Assembly (NCBI GenBank): GCA_049319825.1
Contig: JBMORT010000009.1
Coordinates: forward strand, 67,349-131,348
Direction of reading: 5' to 3'
Length of the DNA: 64,000 nucleotides
Source of the DNA: Patescibacteria group bacterium
GTDB lineage: Bacteria; Patescibacteriota; Patescibacteriia; UBA11705; DATKZF01
Made by a program: the position numbers and the translations under genes. Under the pieces are notes generated by a model. The model was not told the origin of the DNA. It ran no database searches and saw only the letters and a list, made by a program, of their open reading frames with translations. Position 1 is the stretch's first letter, and each line of letters begins with the position of its first letter. Of the stretch, positions 16,816 through 35,170 are shown in pieces.

Positions 16816-17526
16816 ATGAGGAAAATTATTGGAATTTTCTTGGTTTTCTTTATCGGTTTTTATTTTGCAGCATCAGCCAGCGCTCATCAGCCGAGAATTG
16901 CTGAGGAGGAAGTAATATACGTAGAAAATCCGGAGGTTTCGCAGGCTTTTTACGGAGAGCTTAACGGCGCTCCGGAAATTTACATTATCGATTCAGATCG
17001 GAACTTTCGATTATACGTCGGCATACTTTCTCCTGATATACCCGGAGCGGATAAAGATTTTTCAGTGCGAGTAGCCGAACAGGATACGGATCAGCCGTTT
17101 GAATATCTTTTGGACGCGTCAAAATCGGATTGGGAACTGTTTCACGAGGAATTCGCCAAAGACGATTATTTCAACGGCCCTGAATTAAAAGACACTTCAT
17201 ACGAAGGCGAATTGCCCCGCGGCGTGGAAGTTGGCGCCGGCAAATATCAGCTGACTGTGTTCAGTCCTGATAATTCGGGCAAGTATGTTTTGGTTGTTGG
17301 CGAAAAAGAAGAGTTTCCGCCAAAGGAAATTTGGAACACATTTAAGGTATTACCAAAACTGAAAAAAGATTTTTGGGGTAAAAGCTATCTGAGCGCGTTT
17401 TGGAATCTGATCGGATTATTTTTCCTGATCGCGATTGTGATTGCCGTTGTTATCGTATTATTATTGATTTGGATAACAAAAAAAGTTGTTAAAAGATATG
17501 GCAAAAGTCGAGCCAGGCGTTTATAA
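16816..17526 (+). CDS. secreted/membrane-anchored hypothetical protein
   Basis: N-terminal signal/TM and C-terminal TM anchor followed by a basic tail. Confidence 0.5.
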   Translation: MRKIIGIFLVFFIGFYFAASASAHQPRIAEEEVIYVENPEVSQAFYGELNGAPEIYIIDSDRNFRLYVGILSPDIPGADKDFSVRVAEQDTDQPFEYLLDASKSDWELFHEEFAKDDYFNGPELKDTSYEGELPRGVEVGAGKYQLTVFSPDNSGKYVLVVGEKEEFPPKEIWNTFKVLPKLKKDFWGKSYLSAFWNLIGLFFLIAIVIAVVIVLLLIWITKKVVKRYGKSRARRL

Positions 17527-17740
17527 ACATTTCAAAGGCAAGGAATACGAAGTCATCGGCACTGCCCGCGACAGCGAAACGCTGGCTGAGTTAGTAGTTT
17601 ACCGCGCGCTTTACGATTCGCCGGAATTCGGCCCGAACGCGCTCTGGGTCAGGCCCGTGAAGGAGTTTTTTGATGAGGTGGAGGTGGACGGGGAAAAGAT
17701 CCGCCGTTTCGAAAAAATCAATATCACGAAAGTTTTATGA
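17486..17740 (+). CDS. DUF1653-like small protein
   Basis: YKHFKGKEYEV...VVYRALYD resembles DUF1653. Confidence 0.45.
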   Translation: MLKDMAKVEPGVYKHFKGKEYEVIGTARDSETLAELVVYRALYDSPEFGPNALWVRPVKEFFDEVEVDGEKIRRFEKINITKVL

Positions 17741-18468
17741 CTCGCCAGGAATTTTATAGGAAAAAATATAAGAAGATAAATCCGGAATGGCAGGATAGCC
17801 TGACGCTCTACAAAGAAATTATTGATAAGTATGTTAATCAGGAAACCAGAATTTTGGACATTGGCTGCGGTCATGGCGATTATTTAAAAGATGTTTATAG
17901 CAAAACGAGCTATACTTATGGCATTGATCCAGATCGCAGCGCTCTTTCTAAAAATTCAATAATAAAGAATAAATTTTGTTTCGAGGCCGAGACCTTGTCC
18001 TTTTGCGATAATTTCTTTGATTTAGTTGTCAATGCCTGGGTGATGGAACATCTTATAAATCCATATCCAGTGTTCAAGGAGATTTTTCGGGTATTAAAGC
18101 CTTCTGGCAAGCTGATTTTTTTGACGCCCAACAGTCTTAATTATAATATTTGGATCATCAGAGCCGTGCCTCAAAAATTTCATCATTTTTTCACGCACAA
18201 GCTCTACGATCGGCAGGAACATGACACTTTTTCCAAGTATTATAAGGTGAATTCAATGAAAAAAATTGATAAAATGTTGCTGCCGCTTGGTTTTAATAAG
18301 ATTCAATTTATTTGTAATGGCGATCCCACCTACATCAGTTTCAATAATTTATTTTTCAAGATTGCGGTTTGGATAGAAAATATTATAAATAATAAATTTC
18401 CAGATGCCAAAGTGCATTTAATCGGTATATATGAAAAATCTTCAAAAATTATTTCAAAACTCAGTTAA
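17737..18468 (+). CDS. class I SAM-dependent methyltransferase
   Basis: ILDIGCGHGDY motif I; 4-nt overlap with the upstream gene. Confidence 0.75.
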   Translation: MTRQEFYRKKYKKINPEWQDSLTLYKEIIDKYVNQETRILDIGCGHGDYLKDVYSKTSYTYGIDPDRSALSKNSIIKNKFCFEAETLSFCDNFFDLVVNAWVMEHLINPYPVFKEIFRVLKPSGKLIFLTPNSLNYNIWIIRAVPQKFHHFFTHKLYDRQEHDTFSKYYKVNSMKKIDKMLLPLGFNKIQFICNGDPTYISFNNLFFKIAVWIENIINNKFPDAKVHLIGIYEKSSKIISKLS

Positions 18469-19132
18469 TTTTTTGAAAACAAAAAACAAAATTTTATTTT
18501 TGACCACGTCCAATCGTTGGTTTGGAGAAAAAGGAGGCGAGCAGCCGAAGAGCACTCGTTTGGCGGAAAAAATTGCTGAGCATGTGGGCGGAGATAAAGT
18601 TGAAATCGTTGACGTTTCCAAATTGAAAATTTATCCCTGCGAAGGCAATGTTTCGACCAATGCCGGCAATAATTGCGGGCCCAAAGGCGCGGTACTGAAA
18701 GACCATGAGAAAAATCCCAGCGGCCACCATCGCTGCTGGGCGAGTATCAATAATCCTGACGATGAATTATGGAAAGTTTCCAAGCCGCTGCTCGAGAGCG
18801 ACTGCGTTGTATTTTTCGGATCAATTCGCTGGAGCCAGATGAATTCGATTTATCAGAGATTAATTGAGCGATTAACTTGGCTCGAGAACAGGCGGTCGAC
18901 TTTGGGTGAAGAAGATTTGCTCGGCAAAATTGATGCCGGAATCATTATCCTTGGCCACAATTGGAATGTTGATAAAGTCCTTAAAATTCAGAAGGACGTT
19001 ATATCATACTATGGATTCAAAGTTCAGCGAGACATTTGCTGGGGCTGGCAGTTCACCAAAGACGACCATGATGAGAGCGCTGACACTTACAAAAAAGCGG
19101 CTGATTATTTTAATGAATTTTTAAATCAATAA
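18431..19132 (+). CDS. flavodoxin-like fold protein (NAD(P)H-dependent FMN reductase-like)
   Basis: ILFLTTSNR...GG N-terminal flavodoxin-like signature; weak. Confidence 0.45.
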   Translation: MKNLQKLFQNSVNFLKTKNKILFLTTSNRWFGEKGGEQPKSTRLAEKIAEHVGGDKVEIVDVSKLKIYPCEGNVSTNAGNNCGPKGAVLKDHEKNPSGHHRCWASINNPDDELWKVSKPLLESDCVVFFGSIRWSQMNSIYQRLIERLTWLENRRSTLGEEDLLGKIDAGIIILGHNWNVDKVLKIQKDVISYYGFKVQRDICWGWQFTKDDHDESADTYKKAADYFNEFLNQ

Positions 19133-19134
19133 TT

Positions 19135-19539
19135 ATGCAGGAAGTTTTTTGTGCCATTACAGCTGTAATTAAAGACGATGACAAGTTTTTAATTATAAAA
19201 AAGAGTTGGACAAATTTGTGGAGTATTCCGGGAGGCAAGATTGAATATGGTGAAAATCCCTTTAACACGCTTCATCGAGAAATAAAAGAAGAAGTGGGTC
19301 TTGCGGTCAGGATTATTAAACCAATTGGCATTTGGTGGTTTTTCCGCGTCATTGATGATAAGCAAGTGGTTTGTTTTACCTATTTATGCGAGCCGGAAAA
19401 TGAAGATGTTGATATTTCAAAAAATCCGGGCAAAGATAATATTACTGAATTCAAATGGGTGACCAAAGATGAGTTTTTACAAAATAATGAATACACGCCG
19501 GATCATGAAAGTTTAAGGGAATTAATTAAAAATTTATAA
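19135..19539 (+). CDS. NUDIX hydrolase
   Basis: Nudix box GGKIEYGENPFNTLHREIKEEVGL. Confidence 0.8.
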   Translation: MQEVFCAITAVIKDDDKFLIIKKSWTNLWSIPGGKIEYGENPFNTLHREIKEEVGLAVRIIKPIGIWWFFRVIDDKQVVCFTYLCEPENEDVDISKNPGKDNITEFKWVTKDEFLQNNEYTPDHESLRELIKNL

Positions 19540-19573
19540 TGCTTGAAGCGCAAAATAAATTTTTGAATTATTT

Positions 19574-20074
19574 ATGAAGAATACTTGCTTGATAATCAGA
19601 GGTCCGGCAGGAGTGGGCAAAACTACTTTGGCCAAAAGCCTGCAGAAAGATTTTGATTTTGAATATATCAATTGCGATCAGCTTCGAAGAAAAATATTTG
19701 GAGACGACAAATGGCAAAAAGAATATAAAATTCAAGCGATGCAACACGCCGCTGAGCAGGCGAGTGATTTATTGAATCAAGGTAAGAATGTCATAATTGA
19801 CGATGTGTTTGAATACCCGCAGCAAATTGAAATAATAAAAAAACAATTGCCCATTGCGAAATGGGTAACATTGGAAGGGACAGAGGAGCTTTGCATTAAA
19901 AGAGATATTGGCCGAAAAGAAGGCGAAGACGAGCGCGGATATTGCGGCGAGGAAGCGATCAGATATTTGTATAAACATTATTTGAAAGAACCAATTGAAG
20001 GAGAAATCAAAGTCCAAACCGCGGAAAAAACTTCGAGAGAGGTATCTGAAGAAGTAAAGAAGAAACTGATATGA
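19574..20074 (+). CDS. P-loop NTPase (AAA/kinase-like)
   Basis: Walker A GPAGVGKTT; Walker B-like VIIDDV. Confidence 0.6.
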   Translation: MKNTCLIIRGPAGVGKTTLAKSLQKDFDFEYINCDQLRRKIFGDDKWQKEYKIQAMQHAAEQASDLLNQGKNVIIDDVFEYPQQIEIIKKQLPIAKWVTLEGTEELCIKRDIGRKEGEDERGYCGEEAIRYLYKHYLKEPIEGEIKVQTAEKTSREVSEEVKKKLI

Positions 20075-20077
20075 TCT

Positions 20078-20329
20078 ATGATAAATAATATTGAAGCTGT
20101 CACAAAAATAGCGATCTTCAAAGGTCAAGGGATTAGAAAAACTATTCATAATAATGAATGGTGGTTTTCTGTTGTTGATATAATTGCAGTTTTAACAGAC
20201 AGTGTGAATCCTCGTGATTATTGGTATAAAATGAAAGTTCGCGTAAAAAATGAAGACGGTGTTGAGTTGTCGACAAATTGTCGACAACTGAAACTTGAAT
20301 CATCAGATGGAAAAAGAAAGCGGCAATAA
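20078..20329 (+). CDS. Bro-N domain fragment (truncated paralog of 11416-12282)
   Basis: 83 aa, about 65% identical to the N-terminus of the 11416 protein (NNEWWFSVVDIIAVLTDSVNPRDYW...); the ORF stops where the paralog continues. Confidence 0.55.
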   Translation: MINNIEAVTKIAIFKGQGIRKTIHNNEWWFSVVDIIAVLTDSVNPRDYWYKMKVRVKNEDGVELSTNCRQLKLESSDGKRKRQ

Positions 20330-20395
20330 AGTTTCAACACAAAATAATTATCTCAATAAGCCCCAGGATAAGAAGTTATTAGGTAAAAATTAAAT

Positions 20396-20884
20396 ATGAA
20401 AAAGTTAGTGGTATTTTATTCCCTCGACGGCAGTACAAAATTTATTGCCAATATCATTGCGGAAAAGACCGGCGCTGAGCTCTTGGAATTAAAGCCGATC
20501 AAGCCGATCTCAAGCAAAGGATTTGGAAAAATGTTCTGGGGAGGAAAACAGGTGATGATGAAGCATAAGCCCGACTTGGAGCCGTTTGACAAAGATCCGC
20601 AAGATTATGATTTGATTTTTATCGGCACGCCGGTGTGGGCCTGGACTTTTACGCCGGCATTGCGAACATTTTTCAGCCAGGTTAAACTTCAAAATAAAAA
20701 GATCGCGCTTTTCGACTGCAATGGCGGCCAGCCGAAAGATACGCTTAATGATATGGCAAAAGAACTCGAAGGCAATGAAATTATTGGTCAATATGAATTC
20801 GAGGAGCCGATCAAGCGGCAAGAGGCTGCCAGAGAAATGGCGGAGAAGTGGGCGGGGGAAGTTTTAAATAAGTTAAATGAATAA
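20396..20884 (+). CDS. flavodoxin family protein
   Basis: MKKLVVFYSLDGSTKFIA flavodoxin N-terminal signature. Confidence 0.7.
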   Translation: MKKLVVFYSLDGSTKFIANIIAEKTGAELLELKPIKPISSKGFGKMFWGGKQVMMKHKPDLEPFDKDPQDYDLIFIGTPVWAWTFTPALRTFFSQVKLQNKKIALFDCNGGQPKDTLNDMAKELEGNEIIGQYEFEEPIKRQEAAREMAEKWAGEVLNKLNE

Positions 20885-20886
20885 TT

Positions 20887-21579
20887 ATGAATCAGAGCGA
20901 AAGACCTTATGTTTTCTTGGTTACCGGAATGTCTCTGGACGGTAAAATTTCCAATTATAAAAGGACATGCTCGCCGATTTCAAGCGATGACAATCGGGAC
21001 ATGCTTTATGACGGCAGAATCAGAGCTGATGCGGTGATGGTTGGCGGCAGGACATTGCTTTTAGATGATTCTGCATTGGATGTTAAAACAGAAGAGAGGC
21101 AAAATAAGCGTGTACAATTAGGTAAAACCAAGCAGCCAATGAAAGTGGCTGTCGTTTCAGATGCAAGTGATTTGAAGTTGGATTCTGACTTTTTAACAAG
21201 AGGCAATGGTGATAAAATAATATTTACTACTGAAAGAACTTCCAAAGAAAAAATCAGAGAGCTTGAAAAAGTATGCAAAATTTTTGTAATTGGAAATGAA
21301 AAAGTTGATTTGAAACAAGCTTTAGCAAAGCTTAAAAAGTTTGGAGTGAAAGAATTAATGGTCGAAGGCGGCGGAGAATTGATTTATTCCTTATTTAAAT
21401 ATGATTTGGTTGATGAAATAAATTTGAAGATCGGCGATATAATTTTAGGGGGAAGAAATGCTTCAACTTTATGCGATGGTGACGGATTTTTAGCTGATAC
21501 AGCTAAAAGAGTTGAATTAATTGATTTGAAGCGGATGGGAAGTGTTTTAGTTCTGAAATATAAAGTAATTCGTGAATAA
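20887..21579 (+). CDS. RibD C-terminal-domain / dihydrofolate reductase-family reductase
   Basis: PYVFLVTGMSLDGKIS start typical of the RibD_C/DHFR-like family. Confidence 0.7.
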   Translation: MNQSERPYVFLVTGMSLDGKISNYKRTCSPISSDDNRDMLYDGRIRADAVMVGGRTLLLDDSALDVKTEERQNKRVQLGKTKQPMKVAVVSDASDLKLDSDFLTRGNGDKIIFTTERTSKEKIRELEKVCKIFVIGNEKVDLKQALAKLKKFGVKELMVEGGGELIYSLFKYDLVDEINLKIGDIILGGRNASTLCDGDGFLADTAKRVELIDLKRMGSVLVLKYKVIRE

Positions 21580-21631
21580 ATTCCAGCGAATTTTTTATAC
21601 TATTGCACCAAAAATTCGCTGATAAAATGAT

Positions 21632-21892
21632 ATGAGAATCGAGAAAAAAGTCTGGCCGAAATATTTCCAAAAAATTTTGGACGGCGATAAAACTTTTGAA
21701 ATCCGCCTGGCTGATTTTGAGTGCGGCCCGGGTGACACTTTGGTTTTAAAGGAATGGGATCCGGAGACTGAAAAGTATACTGGACGTGAAATTGAAAAAG
21801 AGATTACTTATGTTTTAAAAACCAAAGAGTTGGAATTTTGGCCAGAGGAAGACGTTGAAAAATACGGCTTTCAGATAATTTCATTTAAATAA
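21632..21892 (+). CDS. ASCH-like (DUF3850) small protein
   Basis: similarity pattern KTFEIRLADF...GDTLVLKE; weak. Confidence 0.45.
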   Translation: MRIEKKVWPKYFQKILDGDKTFEIRLADFECGPGDTLVLKEWDPETEKYTGREIEKEITYVLKTKELEFWPEEDVEKYGFQIISFK

Positions 21893-21894
21893 AC

Positions 21895-23046
21895 ATGAAA
21901 ATATTATTTTTTACTGACACATTTTTACCGGAGATCAGCGGCGTGGTCACTTCAGTGGTTAATTTTTCGAAAAGATTGGCCGAGCGCGGCCATGAAATTT
22001 TTATTTTCACCACCCAAAAAAAATCAGCAGAAAAAATCGACCTCGGGCCGCGCATTCATCTGCGGTATTTCAAGCCGATGAATTTTTTAATTAAATATCC
22101 TGATTTTCATCTGGCGCAGCCGGAGATTATCAAAACATTCAAAGATATCAGAGAAATAAAGCCGGATATCATTCATCTTCACATTCCTTCGCCGCAAACC
22201 TGGATGGCGATCGTGCTGGCGCGGCATTATAATATTCCGGTCATTGCCACTTACCACACGCTGCTGCCTAAATTTCTGGGCCATACCTCGCTTCGGGTGC
22301 TGGGCAATGGCAAATCAATGGAAAAGCTGGCCTGGGCATACACGAAAACTTACTATAATCGCCTGAATTTGATCATCACTCCCAGCAAAGTGATGAAGCA
22401 GCAGCTGGCCAGACACGGAGTGAAAAAGAAAATCGAAGTGGTCAGTAATGGCGTCGACGAGACGGTTTTTTCGTATAATCCGATCGCCCATGATAAAATT
22501 CGTCTGCTTCATCTGGGCAGAATAAGCGATGAAAAAAATATTGATCAGGTCGTTCAGGCATTTAAATTGGCAAGGCAAAAAAATGATCAGCTGACATTAT
22601 CCATTTTAGGAGATGGCCCGGCGCTGGGCAGCATTAAAAAGCTGGTTGAAGATTTAAATCTTGGCGGCGACGTCACTTTCATTTCGCCTCAGCCGCTCAG
22701 CGAGCTGCCCAAATTTTATAATGCCCATGATATGTTCGTGACCGCATCGCCGATTGAAACCGAAGGCATAGTAATCTTGGAAGCCATGACTTGCGGCCTG
22801 CCAATAGTCGGCTGTCGCGAAATGGCTGTGCCGCATTTGGTGAGGCATAACAAAAATGGCTATTTATTTGAAAATGGCGATATTGATCGAATGGCTGAGT
22901 ATATGCAGACGCTTGCCATGAATGTAAAAAAACGAAAGCGATTTTCCAGAAATTCATTGGAAATGAGCAAAAGATACGCGCTGAAAAGAAGCATTGATAA
23001 AATTGAAGGAATTTACAAGAAATTAATCAAGAAGAATGTGAAATAG
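21895..23046 (+). CDS. glycosyltransferase family 4
   Basis: GT4 C-terminal EGIVILEAMTCGLPIVG motif. Confidence 0.85.
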   Translation: MKILFFTDTFLPEISGVVTSVVNFSKRLAERGHEIFIFTTQKKSAEKIDLGPRIHLRYFKPMNFLIKYPDFHLAQPEIIKTFKDIREIKPDIIHLHIPSPQTWMAIVLARHYNIPVIATYHTLLPKFLGHTSLRVLGNGKSMEKLAWAYTKTYYNRLNLIITPSKVMKQQLARHGVKKKIEVVSNGVDETVFSYNPIAHDKIRLLHLGRISDEKNIDQVVQAFKLARQKNDQLTLSILGDGPALGSIKKLVEDLNLGGDVTFISPQPLSELPKFYNAHDMFVTASPIETEGIVILEAMTCGLPIVGCREMAVPHLVRHNKNGYLFENGDIDRMAEYMQTLAMNVKKRKRFSRNSLEMSKRYALKRSIDKIEGIYKKLIKKNVK

Positions 23047-23098
23047 GCAGTAGGCAGAAGTATTTTAAGATATTCTTAAGTTCAAATAAAAACAAAAT

Positions 23099-23500
23099 AT
23101 GTCTATACGAATTCCGTTAAATGCTTTGATTTTAACTTTGATAAACTTGGGATCAGTACTTTTATCTTTAGAAATAGTGAATGTGTCCAGCATTAGGAAT
23201 AATGTCGCTTGGGTAGCGGCACTTCTAGCTGTCTTATTCAGTATGATCGGATATTGGGTATTTCGATTCATCGCCAGAAGTTTCAGGGAGCGATTTGTGA
23301 TTTTTCAGGGTATTGCCTTTGCGTATCTGTATATATTCTCTTTGATTTGGATGGCAGTTATTTATATCGCCGGATATTACATGATTCGCGGCAGCTGGCC
23401 AGAATTCGGAAATCTGGTAATGCTCTGGGCTTTTCAGCTGCCTACGAATTATTTGGCTCTATATATTGTGTATGAAATTCATCATAAACAAGTAAAATAA
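23099..23500 (+). CDS. small integral membrane protein
   Basis: 4 predicted TM helices. Confidence 0.45.
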   Translation: MSIRIPLNALILTLINLGSVLLSLEIVNVSSIRNNVAWVAALLAVLFSMIGYWVFRFIARSFRERFVIFQGIAFAYLYIFSLIWMAVIYIAGYYMIRGSWPEFGNLVMLWAFQLPTNYLALYIVYEIHHKQVK

Positions 23501-23504
23501 ATTT

Positions 23505-23918
23505 ATGTTTAAATTTTATTATCCAATCAGAATAAAATCTTTAATCATTCCGGTAATTTTTTGGGCAGGCTGGATGATCGCTTGGATCTGGGCGCCGTCG
23601 GAGATTTTGGTTTGGGGGCCGATCAAATATATCATCATCGCCATTTTCGCTCCCATCGGCGTAATAATTTTAGGCGCGCTGACTGGCTATCGAGTTGAAT
23701 TTGATCAGGTGACGCTCAAAGTCGGATTTTTTCCGTTTATCAGAAAAATTAAAGTTGAAAAAGTGTCAGCCATCAAAAAGGGCGGCATCTATCCGCGCAG
23801 TCTGTGGCAGACGTCAGATTTCGTGACGCTGGGATTCAAAGATAAAAAAGGTTTTTCTTTCCCCTGCAACGAGGCGGAGAAAATAATCGATATTTTAAAA
23901 AGATTCATCAAGCCATAA
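23505..23918 (+). CDS. membrane protein with bPH-like C-terminal domain
   Basis: 2 TM helices, then a PH-like beta segment; tentative. Confidence 0.4.
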   Translation: MFKFYYPIRIKSLIIPVIFWAGWMIAWIWAPSEILVWGPIKYIIIAIFAPIGVIILGALTGYRVEFDQVTLKVGFFPFIRKIKVEKVSAIKKGGIYPRSLWQTSDFVTLGFKDKKGFSFPCNEAEKIIDILKRFIKP

Positions 23919-23920
23919 TT

Positions 23921-24340
23921 ATGAGAAAATTACCCAAAGTCGGCGTCGGCGTCATTATCCGAAAAGACAATAAAGTTTTATTAGGCTTGCGCACCGGGCA
24001 TCATGGAATCGGGACGCACAGCCTGCCCGGCGGACATCTCGAATGGAACGAAAGCATTGAACAATGCGCCAAGCGTGAGACTTTAGAAGAAACCGGATTG
24101 AAGATAAAAAATTTGCGGCACTCAATTTATACCAATGACATTTTTAAAAAAGAAAAAAAGCACTATGTCACGGTTTTTATCGTCGCTGATTATGCGAGTG
24201 GCGAGCTGAAAATAAAAGAGCCGAATAGGGAAGTAAACTGGCGCTGGTACAGCTGGAATAAATTGCCAAAGCCGCTTTTTCTGCCGGTGAAGCATTTGGT
24301 CGAGGCGGGATTTAATCCGTTTAAAAATGTAAGGGATTGA
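23921..24340 (+). CDS. NUDIX hydrolase
   Basis: Nudix box GGHLEWNESIEQCAKRETLEETGL. Confidence 0.8.
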   Translation: MRKLPKVGVGVIIRKDNKVLLGLRTGHHGIGTHSLPGGHLEWNESIEQCAKRETLEETGLKIKNLRHSIYTNDIFKKEKKHYVTVFIVADYASGELKIKEPNREVNWRWYSWNKLPKPLFLPVKHLVEAGFNPFKNVRD

Positions 24341-24365
24341 AAAAAAATAAGTATTTTGCTATACT
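24337..24365 (+). promoter_or_regulatory. sigma-70-like promoter upstream of tRNA-Val
   Basis: TTGAAA-17 nt-TATACT about 40 nt upstream of the tRNA. Confidence 0.4.
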
Positions 24366-24406
24366 GCTTTAGTGAAATAAATATTTGAAAATTCGAAATT
24401 TTGTTC

Positions 24407-24483
24407 GGGCGTATGGCTCAGCTGGTTAGAGCGCTACCTTCACACGGTAGAGGTCTCTGGTTCGAATCCAGATACGCCCACCA
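24407..24483 (+). tRNA. tRNA-Val (anticodon CAC)
   Basis: GGGCGTA/TACGCCC acceptor stem, anticodon loop TTCACAC, A73, encoded CCA. Confidence 0.85.
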
Positions 24484-24800
24484 TTCTTCGCTCGCTAGAG
24501 CGAAGAATGTCCTCCGAAGCCGTCCTTCACTAAAAGCTCCGAACAGCGAAGGAGGACCAGTAAAATAAGTTCGTACTGCCCTTCTTGACGCGAGCTTCGA
24601 ATGGCGCAGCCATTTCAGGGCGAAGGATGTCGTTCGAAGCCTTGGCGAGGAACGCCCAAGTTACGTATAGGTACTGAAGCTCTCAATCGCTTCGGATGGC
24701 ATGGCCATCCTGAATTTTAAAGCAAACACCGATTTCGGCGTTTTTTTTATTGTTGCTATTGACTAATCTGGTTAAAATATCTACAATACCAAATCCTGTG
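24484..24800 (+). other. GC-rich structured region (possible ncRNA or long structured 5' leader)
   Basis: series of hairpins immediately 3' of tRNA-Val (ttcttcgctc...gagcgaagaa; gtcctcc...ggaggac; ggatggcatggccatcc); GC content well above local background. Confidence 0.3.
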
Positions 24801-24832
24801 AAAGGATGGAACCTTTACAAAGGAGGCACCCA

Positions 24833-26017
24833 ATGCCCGGCCGAAAGGAAATTGCCAAAAGAAGAATTACAGCCAAAGAGCTGTTTGAAATGGGCCATAA
24901 GATACCTGATATTGCTGACATGTTAAGAGTGGCAAAGGAAACAATCGATCGGGACTTATTCATTATCAGAGATGAAAAGGAAAATAAGCCGGCCCCAAAG
25001 CGTAGTCTGTTGGCTAGATCGATCGTCATCATTTTGGCTGAACGCGAAGAGGAACTTGATTTAAGAAAAGCGCTTGGCCGCTGGCGGCCGCTGGCGCAGT
25101 TGCCAGCTCAGGCGAAGACCATTGAACTGGTGCTTGGAGAACTTCGGGTCGGCACTGATTTGCCGAAAAAATATCAAAGAATCATCAATGACATTTTCGG
25201 CGACTATTACCGTCCAGCCGAGGACATGGTTATTTTACGAAAATTGCCTGAAATTCTTCACTATGTCTGCCAAGAAACAATTCCCGAAACCGAAAACGAG
25301 CTGATCGCGGCCTATGTCAGGCAATATAAAACAGCAATAAGGCGATTTACCGGCGATATCGCCTTGCCGTGGTGTCCGGCAGTAATTATTTATGAGATTG
25401 ATGAGGCCATCGCCTCGCTCAAGCCGCTGCAGCGGCACGCAATTAACTTGCGCTACGGCGAAAAAATGACTTTTAGAGCCATTGGCAAAGAAATGGGTTA
25501 TCGCAGTGGGCAAAGAGCCAGACAAATCATCGAAAGAGCGTTCATTACTCTCCGACATCGGATTAAAATCCGTGAAATTATGCCAGAAGTCGACACTCTG
25601 CGGTCCGAAATCAAGCGGCTGAATGATTTGCTGGGTAAGCAGGAAAGATTTAGTAAATTCCAAGCTCTGCAGCTAAAGTCTCTTAGAGACGGCCAGTGGC
25701 CATCGGAAGCTGAAATTGCTGAATATACGCCCCATTTCAAAGAGTTGTTTACCAGTCTTGATGAACTTGAATTATCGTGTCGATCGGCTAATTGCCTGCA
25801 AAACGCCAATCTCCGTTTGGTCGGGGAATTGGCGCAGACAACAGAGGAGGAATTGCTCAAAACCAAGAATTTTGGACGCAAATCGCTCAGAGAAATCAAA
25901 GAGATTTTAGCCGAGATGGGTCTTTCGCTTGGAATGAACGGACCCGAGATTGACGTTTTCAATGACCGGCTCAATCGGGAGTCGGCAAGTCAGCGCCACG
26001 GCAACGAAGTCAGATAG
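24833..26017 (+). CDS. chimeric sigma-70 region-4-like / RNA polymerase alpha-CTD-like protein
   Basis: start ATG 7 nt after AGGAGG; central [37 protein letters not shown] matches sigma-70 region 4.2 (compare rpoD in this window); C-terminal [57 protein letters not shown] matches the RpoA alpha-CTD. Confidence 0.7.
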
Positions 26018-26144
26018 CGCAACGGTTATCCGGCTATTTAATAAATAGCCGGTTTTATATTGGCAGAATTATGCACAGGGGAGTCTACATTTGGCATTAA
26101 AAATGGTATAATTTGTTTAACTTTTAAATAAAATAAAAAAAATT

Positions 26145-29100
26145 ATGAATTTTAGGCAAGAGTCAATTTTCAAGTATTTTTTAATCTGCGTTTCACTTTT
26201 TTGTCTGTTCTTCTACGTGGTGCAGATAATCAATGCTTATCCTTTTGAAACAGTGCGTCAAGACACTGTAAACGGCTCGGATGTCGCCGTATTGGTATCT
26301 GAGGATTTTAATACCGATGGCTGGCTCGATGTGGCGGCCACCAGCTGCAATGATAACACGCTTTCGGTGCATATGGGCAGGGGGGATGGCTCGTTTGAAG
26401 ACGCGGTTTCATATTCGACCGGAAATTGTCCATGGGCGGTTCGATCAGGCGATTTTAATTTGGATCGTAATGTCGATTTGATGGTGACCAATTCAGGGGA
26501 AGATACGATCACGGTTTTTTTAGGAAATCCTGACGGGTCATTTAATGCCGGAATTGACTATACGGTTGGAAATAATCCTTATGACGCGGTCGCTTCGGAT
26601 CTCGATGGAGACGGATTTTTGGATTTAATCGTCGGGAATTATAGCGATAGCACCGTGTCCGTTTTGTTAAATGACGGTACGGGTAATTTCAATTTTGACT
26701 CTGAGTATGACACGGGCGATAATAATTGGGGAGTTGTTGCCGGAGATTTTAATAACGACGGCTTTAATGATATTGCCACCGCAAATTATAATGACGATAG
26801 TGTGTCAGTGCTGCTGGGCAATGGAGACGGCACGCTTGGAATCCATACGGATTATCCTGCCGGAGACAATCCTGATGCGATCACTGCCGCCGATCTAAAT
26901 AGGGATAATCAATTGGATTTGATGACCTCAAATGAATTGAGTAATGATGTTACTGTTTTGATAGGAAACGGGGATGGCACGTTTCAGGCGGCAATCAGTT
27001 ACGGGGTCGGGGCGGCACCGTATTCCGTAGCTGCTAAAGATTTGAATAATGATCGCTATCCGGATTTGATAACGGCAAATTACAACGATAATACCGTTTC
27101 CGTGTTGATTAATAATGGCGGCCTAAACTTCAACGCGGCCACGAATTATTCATCAGGATATGGAACTTTTTGGGCGATCGTGGCGGATATCGATGACAAC
27201 GCCATTCCGGATATTGTCACGGCCGATTACGATTATGGAATTTTTTCCGTGCTTTTCGGAAATGGCAACGGTACATTCAAGGTTTTACCGGAATATTCGG
27301 TTGGGGATTCTCCCTACTTTGTTTATAGCGCCGATATCAATAAAGACAATAAGCCGGATTTAATATCGGCTAATTACGATTCTGATAATATTTCCGTACT
27401 AATCAATAATGGTAAGGGGACTTTTGCCAATGCTCAGAATTATAATGTCGGGAGTAATCCCGGTTCCCTGGTATCCTCGGATTTAAATAAAGACGGCGAT
27501 GAGGATTTGATTGTCGCCAACTATGGAAGCTCGACATTTTCCGTGCTTTTTGGCAATGGAAATGGAAGTTTTGGCGATCCCGTTGATTATTTGACAGGCT
27601 CCGGACCCAGGCAGGTAAAAACCGCGGATGTTGACAATGATGGTGATCAGGATATGGTGATCGTCGGGTCAAAAGTGGTTTGTCGCTTGCCGATTTTTCC
27701 CATATTATTCGTAATCAGACCTCGTCCGCCGTTTCCTCCGGACTGTCGATTAAGAAATTTCGGTTCAGTATATTATAATGACGGTACCGGATCTTTCACC
27801 GGCAGCGCCGCTTTAACGGTGGGAGGAAATCCGATGGATATTTCGACCGGAGATTTTAACGGTGATGATTATATCGATTTAGCGTATTCAGTCGCCGACG
27901 AAGGTAACTTGTATGTTGTTTTGAATGATGGAGCTGGTGTATTCGGATCACCGACGTCCTACGCCGCCGGCGGCGGCGCTCATGGCGTCAGCCTGGCCGA
28001 TTTTGATCAAGATGGAATACTTGATGCGGCAGTTTCAAATACCGATGATAATACCATATCATTGTTGATCGGCAATGGAGACGGATCATTCCAGCCGGCC
28101 GTTCAATACGATTCCATCGGCGGGCCGGCGATGATGATCGCTTATGATATTGATAAGGATTCAAAAATAGATCTGATCGCCACAAACACCGCGGCTGAAA
28201 ACTTCGCGATATTGATGGGAGCAGGCAGCTTTAGCGCCACCAAATATTTCGGAGCGGGAGATGCTCCCGTCGCTGTCGCTCATGGCGATTTTAATCATGA
28301 CGGTTATGATGATTTGGCCATTGCCAATTCCGGAGAAGATTCCATATCCGTCGCTTTTAATCGCGCTGCTCGTGCGGGCTCTGGCGGCGGTGGCGGGGGA
28401 GGATCAAATTTTTTGCCTCCCGAAGCATTCTTTCCTCCAAGTCCTCCTGAGGACGGTTTTTCAGTCGAGCTTTACGAAGACAACGATACTAATGACGCTT
28501 GTAAAATGTTTTTGGTGATGAATGGCGGTGTGGACGCCAATAGAATAACCATATCTAATAACCCGGAGTTCGAGCACGCCATTTTAGATTCATATTCGCC
28601 GGTGATGACTTGGAATTTTTGCGATAACCCGACCAACCATGGAATCGGTAACAAAGATGTTTCCGCGGTCGCTGAAAGTCAAATGATTTACGTCAAATTT
28701 TACACGAAATGGGGCAGATGCAGTGATCCGATCAGTATTTCACTGGACAGTATAAAAACCTATGCTGAATTTGAACAGATGATGGTATCCGATGGCAGCG
28801 TCATTGCCGCCAGTGGAGATTCGACTGTGTATTTGATTAAAGATAAAGCCAAATGGCCGTTTATGAGTCAACATGTTTTGGAATCATGGGGGTATCGAGA
28901 AGAGAATGTTATTTCCGTATCGAATTTAAATCTGTGGGCGACCGGGCATGAATTATGGTACCCGATCGATCACCACTATATCCAGGGAATGCTAGTCACC
29001 GGAAAAGATAAATTGTATATTATCTCCGACTCAACGCTAAGAGAATTTGACACAGATTCGATCGCCGAAAAATTGGGATATAAAATTGCTAATGCCGTGA

Positions 29101-29339
29101 CTTTGCCAGATTACATCTTAAACGATTTTCAGATCGGTTCAAAAATCGAGTCGGATTCAGCGCATCCTGACGGCACATTGATAAAATATGATAACAGTCC
29201 GAATGTCTATTTGCTTGATAATGGAGAGAAAAGATGGATCGTGACGATGAACGCTTTCGTTTCCGGCGGATATAATTGGGATTCAATCATAACCATTCCC
29301 GATGATCATCAATATCCTAACGGAGAATCAATAAAATAA
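26145..29339 (+). CDS. giant FG-GAP/VCBS-repeat (beta-propeller) surface protein with C-terminal domain of unknown function
   Basis: N-terminal signal/TM; more than 14 repeats of the DxDxDGxxD...SVLLGNGDGTF type; poly-Gly linker (GSGGGGGGGS) then a ~300-aa non-repeat domain. Confidence 0.8.
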   Translation: MNFRQESIFKYFLICVSLFCLFFYVVQIINAYPFETVRQDTVNGSDVAVLVSEDFNTDGWLDVAATSCNDNTLSVHMGRGDGSFEDAVSYSTGNCPWAVRSGDFNLDRNVDLMVTNSGEDTITVFLGNPDGSFNAGIDYTVGNNPYDAVASDLDGDGFLDLIVGNYSDSTVSVLLNDGTGNFNFDSEYDTGDNNWGVVAGDFNNDGFNDIATANYNDDSVSVLLGNGDGTLGIHTDYPAGDNPDAITAADLNRDNQLDLMTSNELSNDVTVLIGNGDGTFQAAISYGVGAAPYSVAAKDLNNDRYPDLITANYNDNTVSVLINNGGLNFNAATNYSSGYGTFWAIVADIDDNAIPDIVTADYDYGIFSVLFGNGNGTFKVLPEYSVGDSPYFVYSADINKDNKPDLISANYDSDNISVLINNGKGTFANAQNYNVGSNPGSLVSSDLNKDGDEDLIVANYGSSTFSVLFGNGNGSFGDPVDYLTGSGPRQVKTADVDNDGDQDMVIVGSKVVCRLPIFPILFVIRPRPPFPPDCRLRNFGSVYYNDGTGSFTGSAALTVGGNPMDISTGDFNGDDYIDLAYSVADEGNLYVVLNDGAGVFGSPTSYAAGGGAHGVSLADFDQDGILDAAVSNTDDNTISLLIGNGDGSFQPAVQYDSIGGPAMMIAYDIDKDSKIDLIATNTAAENFAILMGAGSFSATKYFGAGDAPVAVAHGDFNHDGYDDLAIANSGEDSISVAFNRAARAGSGGGGGGGSNFLPPEAFFPPSPPEDGFSVELYEDNDTNDACKMFLVMNGGVDANRITISNNPEFEHAILDSYSPVMTWNFCDNPTNHGIGNKDVSAVAESQMIYVKFYTKWGRCSDPISISLDSIKTYAEFEQMMVSDGSVIAASGDSTVYLIKDKAKWPFMSQHVLESWGYREENVISVSNLNLWATGHELWYPIDHHYIQGMLVTGKDKLYIISDSTLREFDTDSIAEKLGYKIANAVTLPDYILNDFQIGSKIESDSAHPDGTLIKYDNSPNVYLLDNGEKRWIVTMNAFVSGGYNWDSIITIPDDHQYPNGESIK

Positions 29340-29346
29340 GATGATT

Positions 29347-29371
29347 AAAACGGCGGTTTATCCGTCGTTTT
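29347..29371. terminator. bidirectional rho-independent terminator
   Basis: aaaacggcgg-tttat-ccgtcgtttt between convergent genes. Confidence 0.45.
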
Positions 29372-29396
29372 ATATTTTAAAAAAGACAGTCTTGGA

Positions 29397-30017
29397 CTAT
29401 CTTTTTATGATGTGTTTGGACAAACTGGAAACAGCCATCAGCAAGGCAAAGCCCAGCACCGCGTTCGCCACTCTGACCAGCACGTAAGTGTTGGCGATTT
29501 GCGACAGGAAAAGCAGCAGTATGCCGATGATTTCCAGATTGCATTTGAGCTTGCCGGAAATATTGGCCTTAAGATCAGCTTTTTCTCCGGTCGCCAATGA
29601 ATCGATCATTTTAAAAATTCTGGTAATCACCAGTGAGCCTTCGACTAGAATAAGAGCCCAGACGAAAAATTGATCGACTGTTCCTTCAAAGAAAATCGCC
29701 AGGGGAACCAGGAAAATCAGCTTATCGACCAGCGGATCGAGAAACGCGCCCAGCTCTGTTTCTTTTTTCGTGGCTCTGGCCAGTGCGCCGTCCAGCAGGT
29801 CAAGCGGCCAGGCTATCAGATAAACCAAAAAAGCCTGCGTCAGCTGTTGGTTTTGAAAGAGTACGATCACTGGTACGATTGAGGCGAGATGTAAAACAGT
29901 CACGAAATTGGGGGTGATTTTTTGAATCGAGCGATGCTCTTTTATGAAAGAAACCAGCTGTCGGTCAAGCTGGTAGTACATTGATTCAAAAATCATCAAA
30001 ACGGTGTTGACATTCAT
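29397..30017 (-). CDS. CDP-alcohol phosphatidyltransferase family protein
   Basis: PLDLLDGALARATKKETELGAFLDPLVDK matches the D-G-x2-A-R-x8-G-x3-D-x3-D motif. Confidence 0.8.
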   Translation of the reverse strand: MNVNTVLMIFESMYYQLDRQLVSFIKEHRSIQKITPNFVTVLHLASIVPVIVLFQNQQLTQAFLVYLIAWPLDLLDGALARATKKETELGAFLDPLVDKLIFLVPLAIFFEGTVDQFFVWALILVEGSLVITRIFKMIDSLATGEKADLKANISGKLKCNLEIIGILLLFLSQIANTYVLVRVANAVLGFALLMAVSSLSKHIIKR

Positions 30018-30194
30018 GTCGCCCCTTCCGATGAGCTCATGTCAGGTATGGTAAATAACCGCAAGATTGTTGTCAAACTTGAAGCTGTTAACGATCGGAT
30101 TCTCCAGATATTGTATCACATCGGGAGCATTATACACAGCTGCTGTTTACAGTATTATCTAGATTTAATATATTACATCCAGCAGGAGGCGAAC

Positions 30195-30455
30195 GTGAAA
30201 AAGACAAACGGCCATGTTGTTGGACTTCATGACACCATAACCAATGCCGCGGTCTTCGAAGCGAAGTTGCATCAATTTCCAGATCAAATCGATGTCGTGA
30301 GATTTGGCGTCCTCGATGATGAATATATTTACGCAGCAGCGTATTCGTCAAAAAACGGCAGTGGATACGGCGGCTTGCTCATGCCATTGATTAAGCTTAA
30401 TGAACTGATGAGAAAGTATAATGGTAGAATTGCATTTGTGAATGTCGCTGAATAA
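30195..30455 (+). CDS. hypothetical small protein
   Basis: GTG start 5 nt after AGGAGG; 86 aa. Confidence 0.4.
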   Translation: MKKTNGHVVGLHDTITNAAVFEAKLHQFPDQIDVVRFGVLDDEYIYAAAYSSKNGSGYGGLLMPLIKLNELMRKYNGRIAFVNVAE

Positions 30456-30495
30456 TCTTTTTTTAGACGATCAATAATATTGATCGTTTTTAATA

Positions 30496-30524
30496 TTGAC
30501 TTTTTTATTAATATATGATATAAT
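30496..30524 (+). promoter_or_regulatory. consensus sigma-70 promoter
   Basis: TTGACT-17 nt-TATAAT. Confidence 0.5.
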
Positions 30525-30549
30525 ATAAAATTAATAAATAATTTGAATT

Positions 30550-30681
30550 ATGGCAAAAAAGACTAAAAAGACGGCGATTTCTAATTTTCCGCACTATTAC
30601 AACATCACCGCGGTGGCGGTGGCCATATTGTCATGCTATGCGGTTTCGTTGATGGCCATTGACTCTTTATCTTCTAAATAA
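30550..30681 (+). CDS. 43-aa basic/hydrophobic miniprotein (MAKKTKKTAISNFPHYYNITAVAVAILSCYAVSLMAIDSLSSK)
   Basis: sits between a consensus promoter and a hairpin terminator; absent from the ORF track (<60 aa). Confidence 0.3.
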   Translation: MAKKTKKTAISNFPHYYNITAVAVAILSCYAVSLMAIDSLSSK

Positions 30682-30697
30682 AAAGAGTGCGCCAAAA

Positions 30698-30718
30698 ACA
30701 GCCTGTCGGCTGTTTTTT
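30698..30718 (+). terminator. rho-independent terminator
   Basis: acagcc-tgtc-ggctgt plus T5. Confidence 0.5.
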
Positions 30719-30805
30719 GGTTAAACGAAAAAAATCCGGGCCCCGATGTTATAAAAGAAACAAGCGTTGATAAACAATAAAAATCGATGGCCCGCATCCC
30801 GCAAA

Positions 30806-30840
30806 AAAGAAACCACCGGCGATGCCGGTGGTTTCTTTTC
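30806..30840. terminator. bidirectional rho-independent terminator
   Basis: gaaaccaccggc-gatg-ccggtggtttc with A-run 5' and T-run 3'. Confidence 0.6.
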
Positions 30841-30852
30841 AATTTAGATCTT

Positions 30853-31452
30853 TTATTTGTTCCACTCCATGAGTTTATCCAGTTTGACCCATTTGGATAA
30901 TCGGTCGCGCATCACTCGAACTCGGCCGGAGTTAACATCATATGTAACCACTTCCCAATTCGGCTCGATTCGGCCGAAAGTTCTTTTAACTTTCACTTTG
31001 TCTCCCATTGAAAAAGGGATTGCCGCCATTGCTTCGACGGTTTTTATCGAATCTTGATCAAGGGATCTCATTGCTCTTACCGGCTCTCCCTCATGTACTT
31101 CTTCCGTTTCATTCGTTATTTCTGACAGCTGTTGTTTTTCATTTATTGCGGCCAATCTGGGATCATTAACGTTTATTTTTATGAATTCCTCGTCTTTATA
31201 CACTTGGGCATCGCCATTTCTCGGATCAATGTCCAATATCTCCCAACCCGGAACGATTTTTTCATTTTTAAAAATTTTAATTTTATCTCCGACTTTAGCT
31301 TTCATTAAGTTCGACTCATCGAACGGTGTTTTTTCAGGGGTTGTATTTAATTCAGTCATCAGTCCGCTACCAATGTAAACATCGGCAGGCCGCTTCGGAT
31401 TATAGGGAACTTCCCCCTTTTTTCTTGGTGGAGGCGTTTCGAATTGTGGCAT
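30853..31452 (-). CDS. hypothetical protein with internal duplicated beta-module
   Basis: KIKIFKNEKIVPGWEILDIDPRNGDAQV and VKVKRTFGRIEPNWEVVTYDVNSGRVRV look like two copies of one small domain. Confidence 0.5.
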   Translation of the reverse strand: MPQFETPPPRKKGEVPYNPKRPADVYIGSGLMTELNTTPEKTPFDESNLMKAKVGDKIKIFKNEKIVPGWEILDIDPRNGDAQVYKDEEFIKINVNDPRLAAINEKQQLSEITNETEEVHEGEPVRAMRSLDQDSIKTVEAMAAIPFSMGDKVKVKRTFGRIEPNWEVVTYDVNSGRVRVMRDRLSKWVKLDKLMEWNK

Positions 31453-33907: not shown

Positions 33908-35170
33908 ATGCCTAAACAGGCAGACAGTAAAATCAAGCGAGTTCGGCCGCAAAAAAAACGTTCGGCCGCAAAAAAAACAGCCGCCAAGGCTGCTTTGAAG
34001 AAGTTAAAAAAGGGCCATAAAAAGCCCCATCAAAAAGTGAAGGTCGAAAGGCGCGGACGACCCAAAAAAATCGAGCCGCCATCAGAGCAATTTATCAGAC
34101 AATTAATCGATAAAGGCCGTAAGCGAGGTTTTATCACCGAGCGGGAAGTGCTTAAAGTGTTCCCGGAGCTGGAAGGCTACCTGGATTCATTTTATGGTTT
34201 TCAGGAAGAGATGGAAGCCAACGGCATCCAAATCGTTGAACTGCGAGGCGGGGTGCTGGGTGCCGATGATGAACGCGATCAAATATTATCCGGCGTGGGG
34301 CAAGGATCCAATGGCAGTCCCGTAGCTAAATACGACATCCCCGAGCTAACTGCGGATTCAATACAAATGTATCTTCGAGAGATCGGAAAGATAAAATTAT
34401 TGACGCAGGAAGAAGAACTGGCTTTAGCCAAGCGCAAGGAAAAAAGCGATCGCGAGGCGGAAAAAAGATTGATCGAGGCGAATTTGCGATTGGTTGTTTC
34501 GATCGCCAAAAAATTCGTCGGCAAAAGCTTGTCACTTTTGGATTTGATTCAGGAAGGAAACATCGGTTTGTTTCGCGCGGTGGAAAAATTTGAGTATCGC
34601 AAGGGATATAAATTTTCCACCTACGCCACCTGGTGGATCCGGCAGGCGATCACTCGCGCGCTGGCCGATCAGTCGCGAACAATTAGAATTCCGGTGCACA
34701 TGGTCGAAACCATCAATAAATTCCAGCAGATAGAAAGACGGTTGATACAAGATCTGGGCCGTGAACCACTGCCGGAAGAAATCGCCGCGGAAATGAATGA
34801 AGATCTGGACAAAATCAAATACATCATGAAAATTTCACAAGAAACGATTTCGCTGGAAACGACAGTGGGCGATGACGATGAAGATAGCACGCTTGAAGAT
34901 TTTATCGAAGATGTTAAAAATGTGTCGCCGGATCATTCGGCCGCGCTGCGTTTGCTGCGCGACTACGTGCGTGAAGTGATCAGGGAGCTGTCGCCGCGCG
35001 AACAGAAAATATTGGAAATGAGATTCGGTTTGGTTGACGGCGTATCGCACACGCTGGAAGAAGTGGGCCAGGAATTCGACGTGACTCGCGAGCGCATCAG
35101 GCAAATTGAAGCGAAAGCCTTGGAAAAAATTCAAAATATGAAAGGGATTGAAAAATTGAGAGACTATTAG
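33908..35170 (+). CDS. rpoD: RNA polymerase sigma factor RpoD (sigma-70)
   Basis: region 2 [40 protein letters not shown]; region 4 [26 protein letters not shown]. Confidence 0.95.

Follow-up and report, generated by a model that had tools for sequence, protein, structure and literature searches.

The upstream half of a bacterial promoter is read by two modules of RNA polymerase (RNAP), region 4 of the sigma subunit and the carboxyl-terminal domain of the alpha subunit (alpha-CTD), which are also the chief targets of activators. Region 4.2 of sigma-70 recognizes the -35 element, and the 265 determinant of the alpha-CTD binds the minor groove of the UP element. Genetic work in E. coli places the 261 patch of the alpha-CTD in touch with R603 of sigma. 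To our knowledge, the two modules have so far been known from separate subunits of the polymerase. Here we describe a gene of a Patescibacteria group bacterium that encodes both of them in one polypeptide. The gene lies at 24833..26017 on the + strand of a stretch of 64,000 nucleotides (nt), which corresponds to positions 67,349 to 131,348 of contig JBMORT010000009.1 (assembly GCA_049319825.1) and is called the window below; the segments of the gene, its promoter and terminator and the tRNA-Val gene described below are on the same strand. The fusion protein consists, in this order, of a small N-terminal helix-turn-helix (HTH), a helical middle, a region 4 of the primary-sigma type, a variable helical linker and a canonical alpha-CTD. 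We read it, with a probability of roughly 0.45, as a free-standing multi-module DNA-binding regulator that is predicted to read -35-like and adjacent A/T-rich DNA, probably in competition with RNA polymerase.

The open reading frame (ORF) runs from an ATG at 24806 to 26017 and encodes 403 residues, the form that the Logan assembly lists. More likely, translation starts at the ATG at 24833, because a Shine-Dalgarno (SD) sequence read from the DNA, AAGGAGG (24821..24827), is located 5 nt ahead of it and the relatives, in alignment, begin there too ("MPVS..."). Read from this codon, the coding sequence comprises 394 residues and the stop codon. The Pfam scan (hmmscan) was made with the 403-residue form, and the following residue numbers refer to it. 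RNA_pol_A_CTD (PF03118) matches residues 312–370 with an E-value of 2.3e-23 and 82.1 bits (cut-off 23.8). Sigma70_r4 (PF04545) matches residues 201–251 with an E-value of 1.7e-9 and 37.5 bits (cut-off 24.1), and Sigma70_r4_2 reaches 28.5 bits with a cut-off of 25.7. At E ≤ 10 there is no match to the Sigma70_r2, Sigma70_r3, generic helix-hairpin-helix (HhH) or alpha N-terminal domain (NTD) models, nor to PF01193 and PF01000, the models for alpha dimerization and assembly. The NCBIfam rpoA equivalogs align through their last 70–90 positions only, with 46–108 bits against cut-offs of 228–523. Known anti-sigma and appropriator families (AsiA, MotA, Rsd-like) gave no match in scans of Pfam, NCBIfam, PHROGs and PADLOC.

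The protein is thus a member of both PF03118 and PF04545, and it is neither a sigma factor, having no region 2, nor an alpha subunit, having no NTD. A preliminary description of this DNA had claimed a sigma-70 region 4, an alpha-CTD at the C-terminus and no sigma region 2. The first now passes the curated Pfam cut-off, the second is borne out by the RNA_pol_A_CTD score, and the third agrees with the missing Sigma70_r2 match. That observation stands, because both profiles match and the C-terminus is not a generic HhH of the DNA-repair kind.

A collection of about 15 billion proteins contains the 403-residue sequence once (P0001, from a single Logan contig) and does not contain the 394-residue form. 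Relatives were identified by a HMMER search with the N-terminal 306 residues, which leave out the alpha-CTD, against 1.84 billion representatives. It yielded P0123 (411 residues), P0124 (393 residues), P0125 (419 residues) and P0127 (405 residues). The fragment P0126 was also found, and its cluster includes P0132 (398 residues). The five relatives are collinear with the window protein from end to end, at 28–33% identity. Alignment A1 holds five members and the P0126 fragment, and the truncated P0126 is its one row without an RNA_pol_A_CTD match. All full-length members carry both Sigma70_r4 and RNA_pol_A_CTD, and Sigma70_r2 is absent from all family members at E ≤ 1 in the Pfam scan. Mean pairwise identity is highest in the alpha-CTD (47%), followed by the sigma module and the N-terminal HTH (34% each), the middle region (22%) and the linker (16%).

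The relatives come from different samples (Logan, ENA, JGI) and independent metagenomes. The fusion layout is conserved across six or more distant lineages, in a family that is very rare and so far known from metagenomes only. The occurrence of the 403-residue sequence on one contig among about 15 billion proteins could raise the suspicion of an assembly chimera, or of a gene-fusion pseudogene without function. The family has already effectively refuted this suspicion: the same layout is found in five independent clusters, so it is not an assembly chimera, and the collinear architecture comes with intact frames and conserved functional residues. The window gene also has a proper promoter, SD sequence and terminator. 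Among the proteins encoded nearby, BipA is identical to MFZ5365470.1, a NUDIX protein to MFZ5365484.1 and RpoD to MFZ5365491.1, all three encoded on a contig of a metagenome-assembled genome (MAG) deposited at NCBI.

The sigma-derived module occupies residues 167–250 of the 394-residue form (25331..25582), as delimited by hhalign, Pfam and the structure model. It begins with the end of region 3.2, goes on through 4.1 and 4.2 and closes with the C-terminal tail of sigma. In hhalign, the family aligned with six RpoD sequences matches RpoD residues 331–422 over residues 167–250, with a probability of 98% and an E-value of 1.3e-13, and the alignment does not reach upstream of the end of region 3.2. 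Pfam places Sigma70_r4 at residues 192–242 in the 394-residue numbering, which is used from here on, and all six members match. The residues of sigma region 4.2 and of the alpha-CTD 265 determinant that are named in this text are established DNA-contact determinants of E. coli sigma-70 and RpoA. In E. coli sigma numbering, R562, R586 and R588 are kept in six of six members, Q589 in five, E585 in four and R584 in two, and position 603 is R or K in five of the six. P0123 and P0124 retain all of R584, E585, R586, R588 and Q589. The window protein keeps R586, R588 and Q589 but has G584 and Q585, and its loop between regions 4.1 and 4.2 is 4 residues shorter.

What the module has in common with region 4 (PF04545) of primary (group 1) sigma-70 factors is regions 4.1 and 4.2, and most members also have the "KLRHPSRS" tail of the proteobacterial type. 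The RpoD of the window ends in "EKIQNMKG", and the tail of the fusion family is closer to that of E. coli sigma-70. The sigma module was therefore not copied recently from the rpoD of its host. The fusion protein differs from primary sigma-70 in lacking regions 1.2, 2 and 3, besides the two substitutions and the shortened loop of the window protein. Without these regions it is capable neither of DNA melting nor of binding to the beta-prime coiled-coil. As a separate observation, the window RpoD (33908–35170) has a K/R-rich N-terminal extension of about 55 residues and is without an "LRHPSRS" C-terminal tail.

The same module also bears on whether the protein acts on the polymerase itself. The sigma-4 module, together with the region 3.2 end, might bind the beta-flap tip of RNAP. 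It would then either supply region 4 to a sigma factor that lacks one, as a split or two-subunit sigma comparable to SigO-RsoA, or act as a decoy that displaces region 4 of the housekeeping sigma, and in both cases the alpha-CTD would add a UP-type DNA contact. The extension of the sigma-derived segment N-terminally of the HTH into the 3.2/4.1 junction is consistent with such docking. So is the retention of the beta-flap-binding positions: F563, L598 and L607 are retained, I565 is present in most members, and E555, F563, I565, L598 and L607 are conservatively kept in most. However, the flap-contact residues belong to the hydrophobic core as well, so their conservation is uninformative, and the window protein has E at I565 in addition to the 4-residue deletion in its 4.1-4.2 loop. 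In one relative (P0125, locus L002), a gene for an extracytoplasmic function (ECF) sigma factor is located 1.6 kb downstream, at 3047–3652, otherwise among small ORFs. This sigma is complete (r2 and r4), it is found at L002 only, no partner gene is conserved, and no sigma-2-only gene is near any locus. We therefore regard docking as a doubtful explanation, although it is the foremost of the alternatives. Equally doubtful is the broader proposal of a detachable "upstream-promoter reader", a natural single-chain counterpart of the sigma-4/alpha-CTD/DNA complex acting on RNAP itself, be it a new split sigma docked at the flap that would lend -35/UP recognition to an alternative holoenzyme or one lacking region 4, or a global competitor that would shut down housekeeping promoters dependent on UP and -35 elements.

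The alpha-CTD (residues 301–366, 25733..25930) was delimited by Pfam, PDB, Foldseek and a residue table, and has an intact 265 determinant and 261 patch. In a PDB sequence search, 50 of 50 matches were RpoA chains, the best with an E-value of 5.9e-21. Foldseek superposes the modelled domain on solved alpha-CTDs (9zum, 3n4m, 1lb2, 3n97) with a root-mean-square deviation of 0.8–1.7 Å and a target template modelling score of 0.84–0.94. The domain shares 62% identity with the alpha-CTD of Caulobacter in an alignment of 69 residues. Among the best rpoA matches, those with a source name are of the Myxococcota or Bdellovibrionota type.

The window protein is identical to E. coli RpoA at R265, N268, C269, N294, G296, K298 and S299. 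In the family, R265, G296, K298 and E261 are present in six of six members and N268, C269, N294 and S299 in five of six. The conservation of the 265 determinant, which the preliminary description had singled out as a point to examine, is thereby established. Like the alpha-CTD of RpoA (PF03118), the fusion protein's C-terminal domain combines this fold and the intact 265 determinant with an acidic 261 patch. It differs from RpoA in having no alpha NTD, so the fusion protein cannot enter core RNAP as alpha does. Each family alpha-CTD is nearer to canonical RpoA alpha-CTDs than to its fellow members; the window protein scores 0.75 at best and 0.70 in the median for the former against 0.48 for the latter, with an RpoA comparison set picked by similarity to the window protein. 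This greater nearness to RpoA than to its own family gives a star-like pattern and indicates a strong canonical constraint on the domain.

The 287 determinant is where the family departs from RpoA: positions V287, R317 and L318 vary, and E286, E288 and L289 are partly kept. This bears on a further explanation, that free alpha-CTD and sigma-4 surfaces serve as a decoy titrating class I and class II activators off RNAP. Both modules are classical activator targets, and the partial retention of E286, E288 and L289, together with that of the basic 593–603 patch, would agree with such a role. Yet conservation is found at the DNA-contact residues and not at V287, R317 and L318, and a decoy would render both the N-terminal HTH and the intact 265 determinant superfluous. 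We consider an activator decoy very unlikely, and the DNA-binding regulator remains our preferred reading of the two modules.

The linker that joins them (residues 251–300, 25583..25732), recognized from the model and from identity by segment, is the least conserved segment. For the window protein a single long helix is predicted here, and P0124 and P0125 have a shorter linker. The C-terminal tail beyond the alpha-CTD (residues 367–394, 25931..26014), defined from the same two sources, is not conserved.

The N-terminal three-helix HTH (residues 1–48, 24833..24976) resembles sigma-4, LuxR and HTH_23 modules according to Pfam, phmmer, the family profile and the model. R10, L17, G21, A28 and D41 are invariant across the family. 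The Pfam matches of the window protein are weak (HTH_23 and HTH_7, E about 0.05), as are those of the family profile to sigma-H region 4, ComA, VraR and DevR in the PDB (E of 0.1–1). The N-termini of the relatives match Sigma70_r4/r4_2 at E of about 1e-3, and the family profile strongly matches the designed HTH repeat 8vd6 (a "CAP repeat" protein) in the PDB. The suggestion that the N-terminus holds a further HTH of the region-4/LuxR type is supported by these weak matches, by the three-helix model and by phmmer matches to HTH-repeat proteins. These natural proteins include P0122 (359 residues) and P0128 (227 residues), with 3 to 6 tandem HTH modules of about 55 residues resembling the N-terminal HTH of the family. 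Their module likewise matches 8vd6.

The middle region (residues 49–166, 24977..25330) is specific to the family and predicted to be all-helical, with Y114 and G123 invariant. It has no relatives in Pfam at E ≤ 1, in the PDB profile search or in the RpoD profile. A cryptic sigma region 2 or 3 in this segment was considered and ruled out by hhalign against the six RpoD sequences, by Pfam at E ≤ 1 and by the PDB profile search, all of which were negative. AlphaFold2 with the single sequence gave a mean predicted local distance difference test (pLDDT) score of 36, which is unusable, and the model used here was built from the six-sequence family alignment. Its pLDDT is about 70 for the N-terminal HTH, about 83 for sigma-4, about 80 for the alpha-CTD and below 50 for the middle region.

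The fusion gene is preceded by a promoter of the sigma-70 type, TTGACT-17-TACAAT (24759..24787), which was found by the promoter scan and in the sequence, agrees with the consensus at 10 of 12 positions and has a T-rich tract ahead of it. An intrinsic terminator detected by the terminator scan, with a 10-bp stem and a T-rich tail (26030..26062), begins 13 nt past the stop codon. With its own promoter and its own terminator the gene is a separate transcription unit, predicted to be monocistronic. Its G+C content of 0.47 is within the range of the adjacent coding regions. In five of five loci, the 200 nt upstream of the start codon contain exactly one TTGAC(A/T), which lies between -74 and -100; the background density is 0.70 TTGAC[AT] sites per kb. 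The 22-nt flank upstream of it is 59–86% A/T in the five loci. The promoter scan in the other family loci gave no enrichment over shuffles; only the single TTGAC[AT] per upstream region is used for them, and mapped promoters are claimed for the window alone. A terminator detected by the scan directly follows the stop codon in four loci, those of the window, L002, L004 and L005.

The putative DNA-contact residues of sigma region 4.2 and of the alpha-CTD are shown to be the best-conserved positions. Their conservation in both modules suggests direct DNA binding as the first reading of the protein, ahead of the appropriator or anti-sigma-like adaptor that the preliminary description had considered. 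In the regulator that we propose, sigma-4 would read a -35-like hexamer in the major groove. For P0123 and P0124, with the full set of R584, E585, R586, R588 and Q589, TTGACA-like sites are predicted; in the window protein, G584 and Q585 may have shifted the specificity. The tethered alpha-CTD would contact the adjacent A/T-rich minor groove through R265, N268, G296, K298 and S299. One polypeptide would in this way mimic the alpha-CTD/sigma-4/UP/-35 complex of PDB 3N97, and the tethering would convert two weak binders into a single avid reader. The N-terminal HTH could provide a third contact and more specificity. Because the predicted sites are DNA that the holoenzyme needs, the simplest effect would be promoter occlusion, that is, repression. 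Autoregulation of the gene through its own promoter is plausible.

Several points weigh against this proposal. DNA binding and the target site are predictions from sequence, from which we infer the mechanism. The family is tiny, and the conservation statistics come from six sequences. The E. coli residue numbers derive from reference sequences checked only by the known determinant residues falling at their expected numbers. The residues that contact the beta-flap (F563, L598 and L607, and mostly I565) are retained too, although they double as core residues. A consensus -35 element upstream of the gene is expected of any strong promoter and is not independent evidence of autoregulation. How the domains are placed relative to one another is unreliable in the model, whose predicted template modelling score (pTM) is 0.34. 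Finally, the function of the protein could really reside in its middle region, whose 118 residues are one third of the whole.

Upstream of the fusion gene and outside its transcription unit is a gene for tRNA-Val(CAC) at 24407..24483, identified by ARAGORN and by Rfam (tRNA, 70.7 bits). It is followed by a structured trailer of 267 nt (24484..24750), which was delineated by RNA folding and a repeat search, contains hairpins and a direct repeat, and ends in a hairpin followed by T8. The trailer RNA folds with -92.2 kcal/mol (z = -3.4) and is rich in CGAAG/CTTCG hairpins. The direct repeat of 25 nt is located at 24497–24521 and 24617–24641, 120 nt apart, and occurs in 2 copies where 0.00 are expected; it resembles an imperfect tandem duplication of 120 nt. 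The trailer belongs to no Rfam family.

The preliminary description had taken this segment for a structured leader of the fusion gene. It is instead the trailer of tRNA-Val and not a leader, because it is upstream of the promoter at 24759–24787 and ends in a terminator-like hairpin with T8. A riboswitch or leader was rejected on the same positional grounds and for want of an Rfam match. Similar hairpins (CCTCCGTAGC...GCGAAGGAGGG) stand on both sides of the homologous gene in locus L004, at about 860–925 and 2425–2460. The hairpins of L004 and the window hint at a shared intergenic element resembling repetitive extragenic palindromic (REP) sequences, or at related host lineages. An exact-pattern search for the L004-type hairpin found the window copy only.

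The downstream neighbour of the fusion gene encodes a 1064-residue FG-GAP protein (26145–29339) on the same strand, 127 nt away and behind the terminator. At its N-terminus the protein has a hydrophobic anchor or signal. It contains at least 12 repeats of the FG-GAP/VCBS type, and a glycine run (GSGGGGGGGS) stands ahead of a C-terminal region without a Pfam match. Its exact sequence is absent from the 15-billion-protein collection. The adjacency of the two genes, and a promoter-like site of the FG-GAP gene's own at 26084–26112, are in line with the earlier claim that the fusion protein is a candidate regulator of this surface protein. However, the intrinsic terminator stands between the two genes, the neighbours of the relatives are entirely different and unrelated between loci, and in the four other loci the homologue has no FG-GAP gene beside it. 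Moreover, neither gene has a relative in the BipA-flanking loci (up to 10 kb on each side) of 80 Patescibacteria genomes. A role as dedicated regulator of the FG-GAP protein is thus improbable, more so than docking on RNAP, and the earlier claim is not upheld.

The BipA of the window is 74–77% identical to BipA of Ca. Falkowbacteria and Parcubacteria MAGs. At locus L003 the neighbours of the homologue are HIT, M28, P-type ATPase, BipA and L33 genes. This BipA is only about 50% identical to BipAs of the candidate phyla radiation (CPR), so the family may extend beyond a single lineage. The genes at 16.8–31.5 kb of the window have no homologues around BipA in the same 80 Patescibacteria loci. Therefore the fusion gene is in a variable region. 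The interval from BipA to DnaG-RpoD (16816–31452) looks like a variable region specific to the lineage. It holds genes for two NUDIX proteins, a methyltransferase, a flavodoxin, an RibD_C protein, a GT4 glycosyltransferase and a CDP-alcohol phosphatidyltransferase, two small membrane-like ORFs, the fusion gene and the FG-GAP gene. The 3′ end of tRNA-Val has no second copy within the window, and there is consequently no att-type evidence of an integrated element. A mobile element at tRNA-Val was considered and rejected in view of the unrepeated 3′ end, the absence of a GC anomaly, and the absence of phage, plasmid or defence signals. PHROGs and PADLOC gave no phage or defence signal. IMG/VR contains no relative, and tblastn of phage and plasmid collections returned rpoA alpha-CTDs only.

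Other searches for relatives were governed by the alpha-CTD or returned little. A homology search with the full-length protein was dominated by about 7,900 RpoA alpha-CTD matches. The N-terminal 306 residues matched nothing but themselves in a word-indexed database, the N-terminus of the window protein had no match in viral or GTDB genome contigs, and a profile of the N-terminal and middle regions recovered P0124 only. A metagenome scan with A5 returned rpoA genes only, and the longer-looking candidates L103, L106 and L162 proved to be ordinary rpoA. The top phmmer match by E-value, P0121 (729 residues), is a low-complexity translation of tandem repeats and probably an artefact of repeat DNA rather than a relative. 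P0121 illustrates that repetitive sequences can rank above true members in a phmmer search. At L003, the TTG start of P0127 (3616–3663) is probably wrong; an internal ATG 45 nt downstream, after AAAGGAGG, is in alignment with the N-termini of the family (MSISQEK...). A 189-residue ORF that overlaps the 3′ end of the P0127 gene holds a terminator-like hairpin and may be spurious.

A natural fusion of sigma-4 and alpha-CTD will be surprising to specialists of transcription and is easily testable. The conserved covalent linkage of the two modules, off the enzyme, means that modules of RNAP can be put to use as DNA-binding domains like any other. The fusion protein is also a ready probe of how far the two modules together recognize promoters in the absence of the remaining enzyme. 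Should it compete with RNAP or plug into it, it would represent a new control of transcription in the regulator-poor Patescibacteria, and a compact part for synthetic promoter control. If it acts as a split sigma or as a global competitor, it would exemplify a principle of transcription control not described before.

Among known systems, PDB 3N97, a complex of alpha-CTD, sigma region 4 and UP plus -35 DNA, contains the same two modules, and both of their mutual-contact surfaces are retained in the fusion protein. The domains are separate in 3N97; in the fusion they are covalently joined, with sigma-4 N-terminal, a linker of 50–75 residues and a location off RNAP. The LuxR/GerE family and the C-terminal domain of WhiA likewise use a sigma-4-type HTH as a DNA reader outside a sigma factor. 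They carry no alpha-CTD and their HTHs are fold-level relatives of sigma-4 only; the fusion module is instead a recognizable primary-sigma region 4, including region 4.1 and the tail.

The SigO-RsoA two-subunit sigma and the appropriation of sigma by T4 AsiA/MotA are conceptually related cases, in which sigma region 4 is separated or re-targeted. The fusion protein has neither a sequence relation to them nor a partner gene, and the likeness is a conceptual one. The BREX kinase PglW is a carrier of an alpha-CTD-like HhH other than RpoA, with weak matches to the present protein (NCBIfam E of 9e-4, PADLOC E of 7e-4). The PglW models span about 1400 positions and are named for a BREX serine/threonine kinase, whereas the fusion protein has no kinase domain and no defence context.

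A fusion of primary-sigma region 4 with an alpha-CTD was not found described in the literature, within a comparison that stopped short of the InterPro architecture tables, and Pfam, NCBIfam, PHROGs and PADLOC hold the separate domains only, with no entry for the fusion. The statement in the preliminary description that such a protein is not a described class of transcription factor agrees with this comparison. As a general kind, modular DNA-binding regulators of the HTH type are known; what appears to be new is the domain architecture, which joins the two promoter-reading modules of RNA polymerase in one protein.

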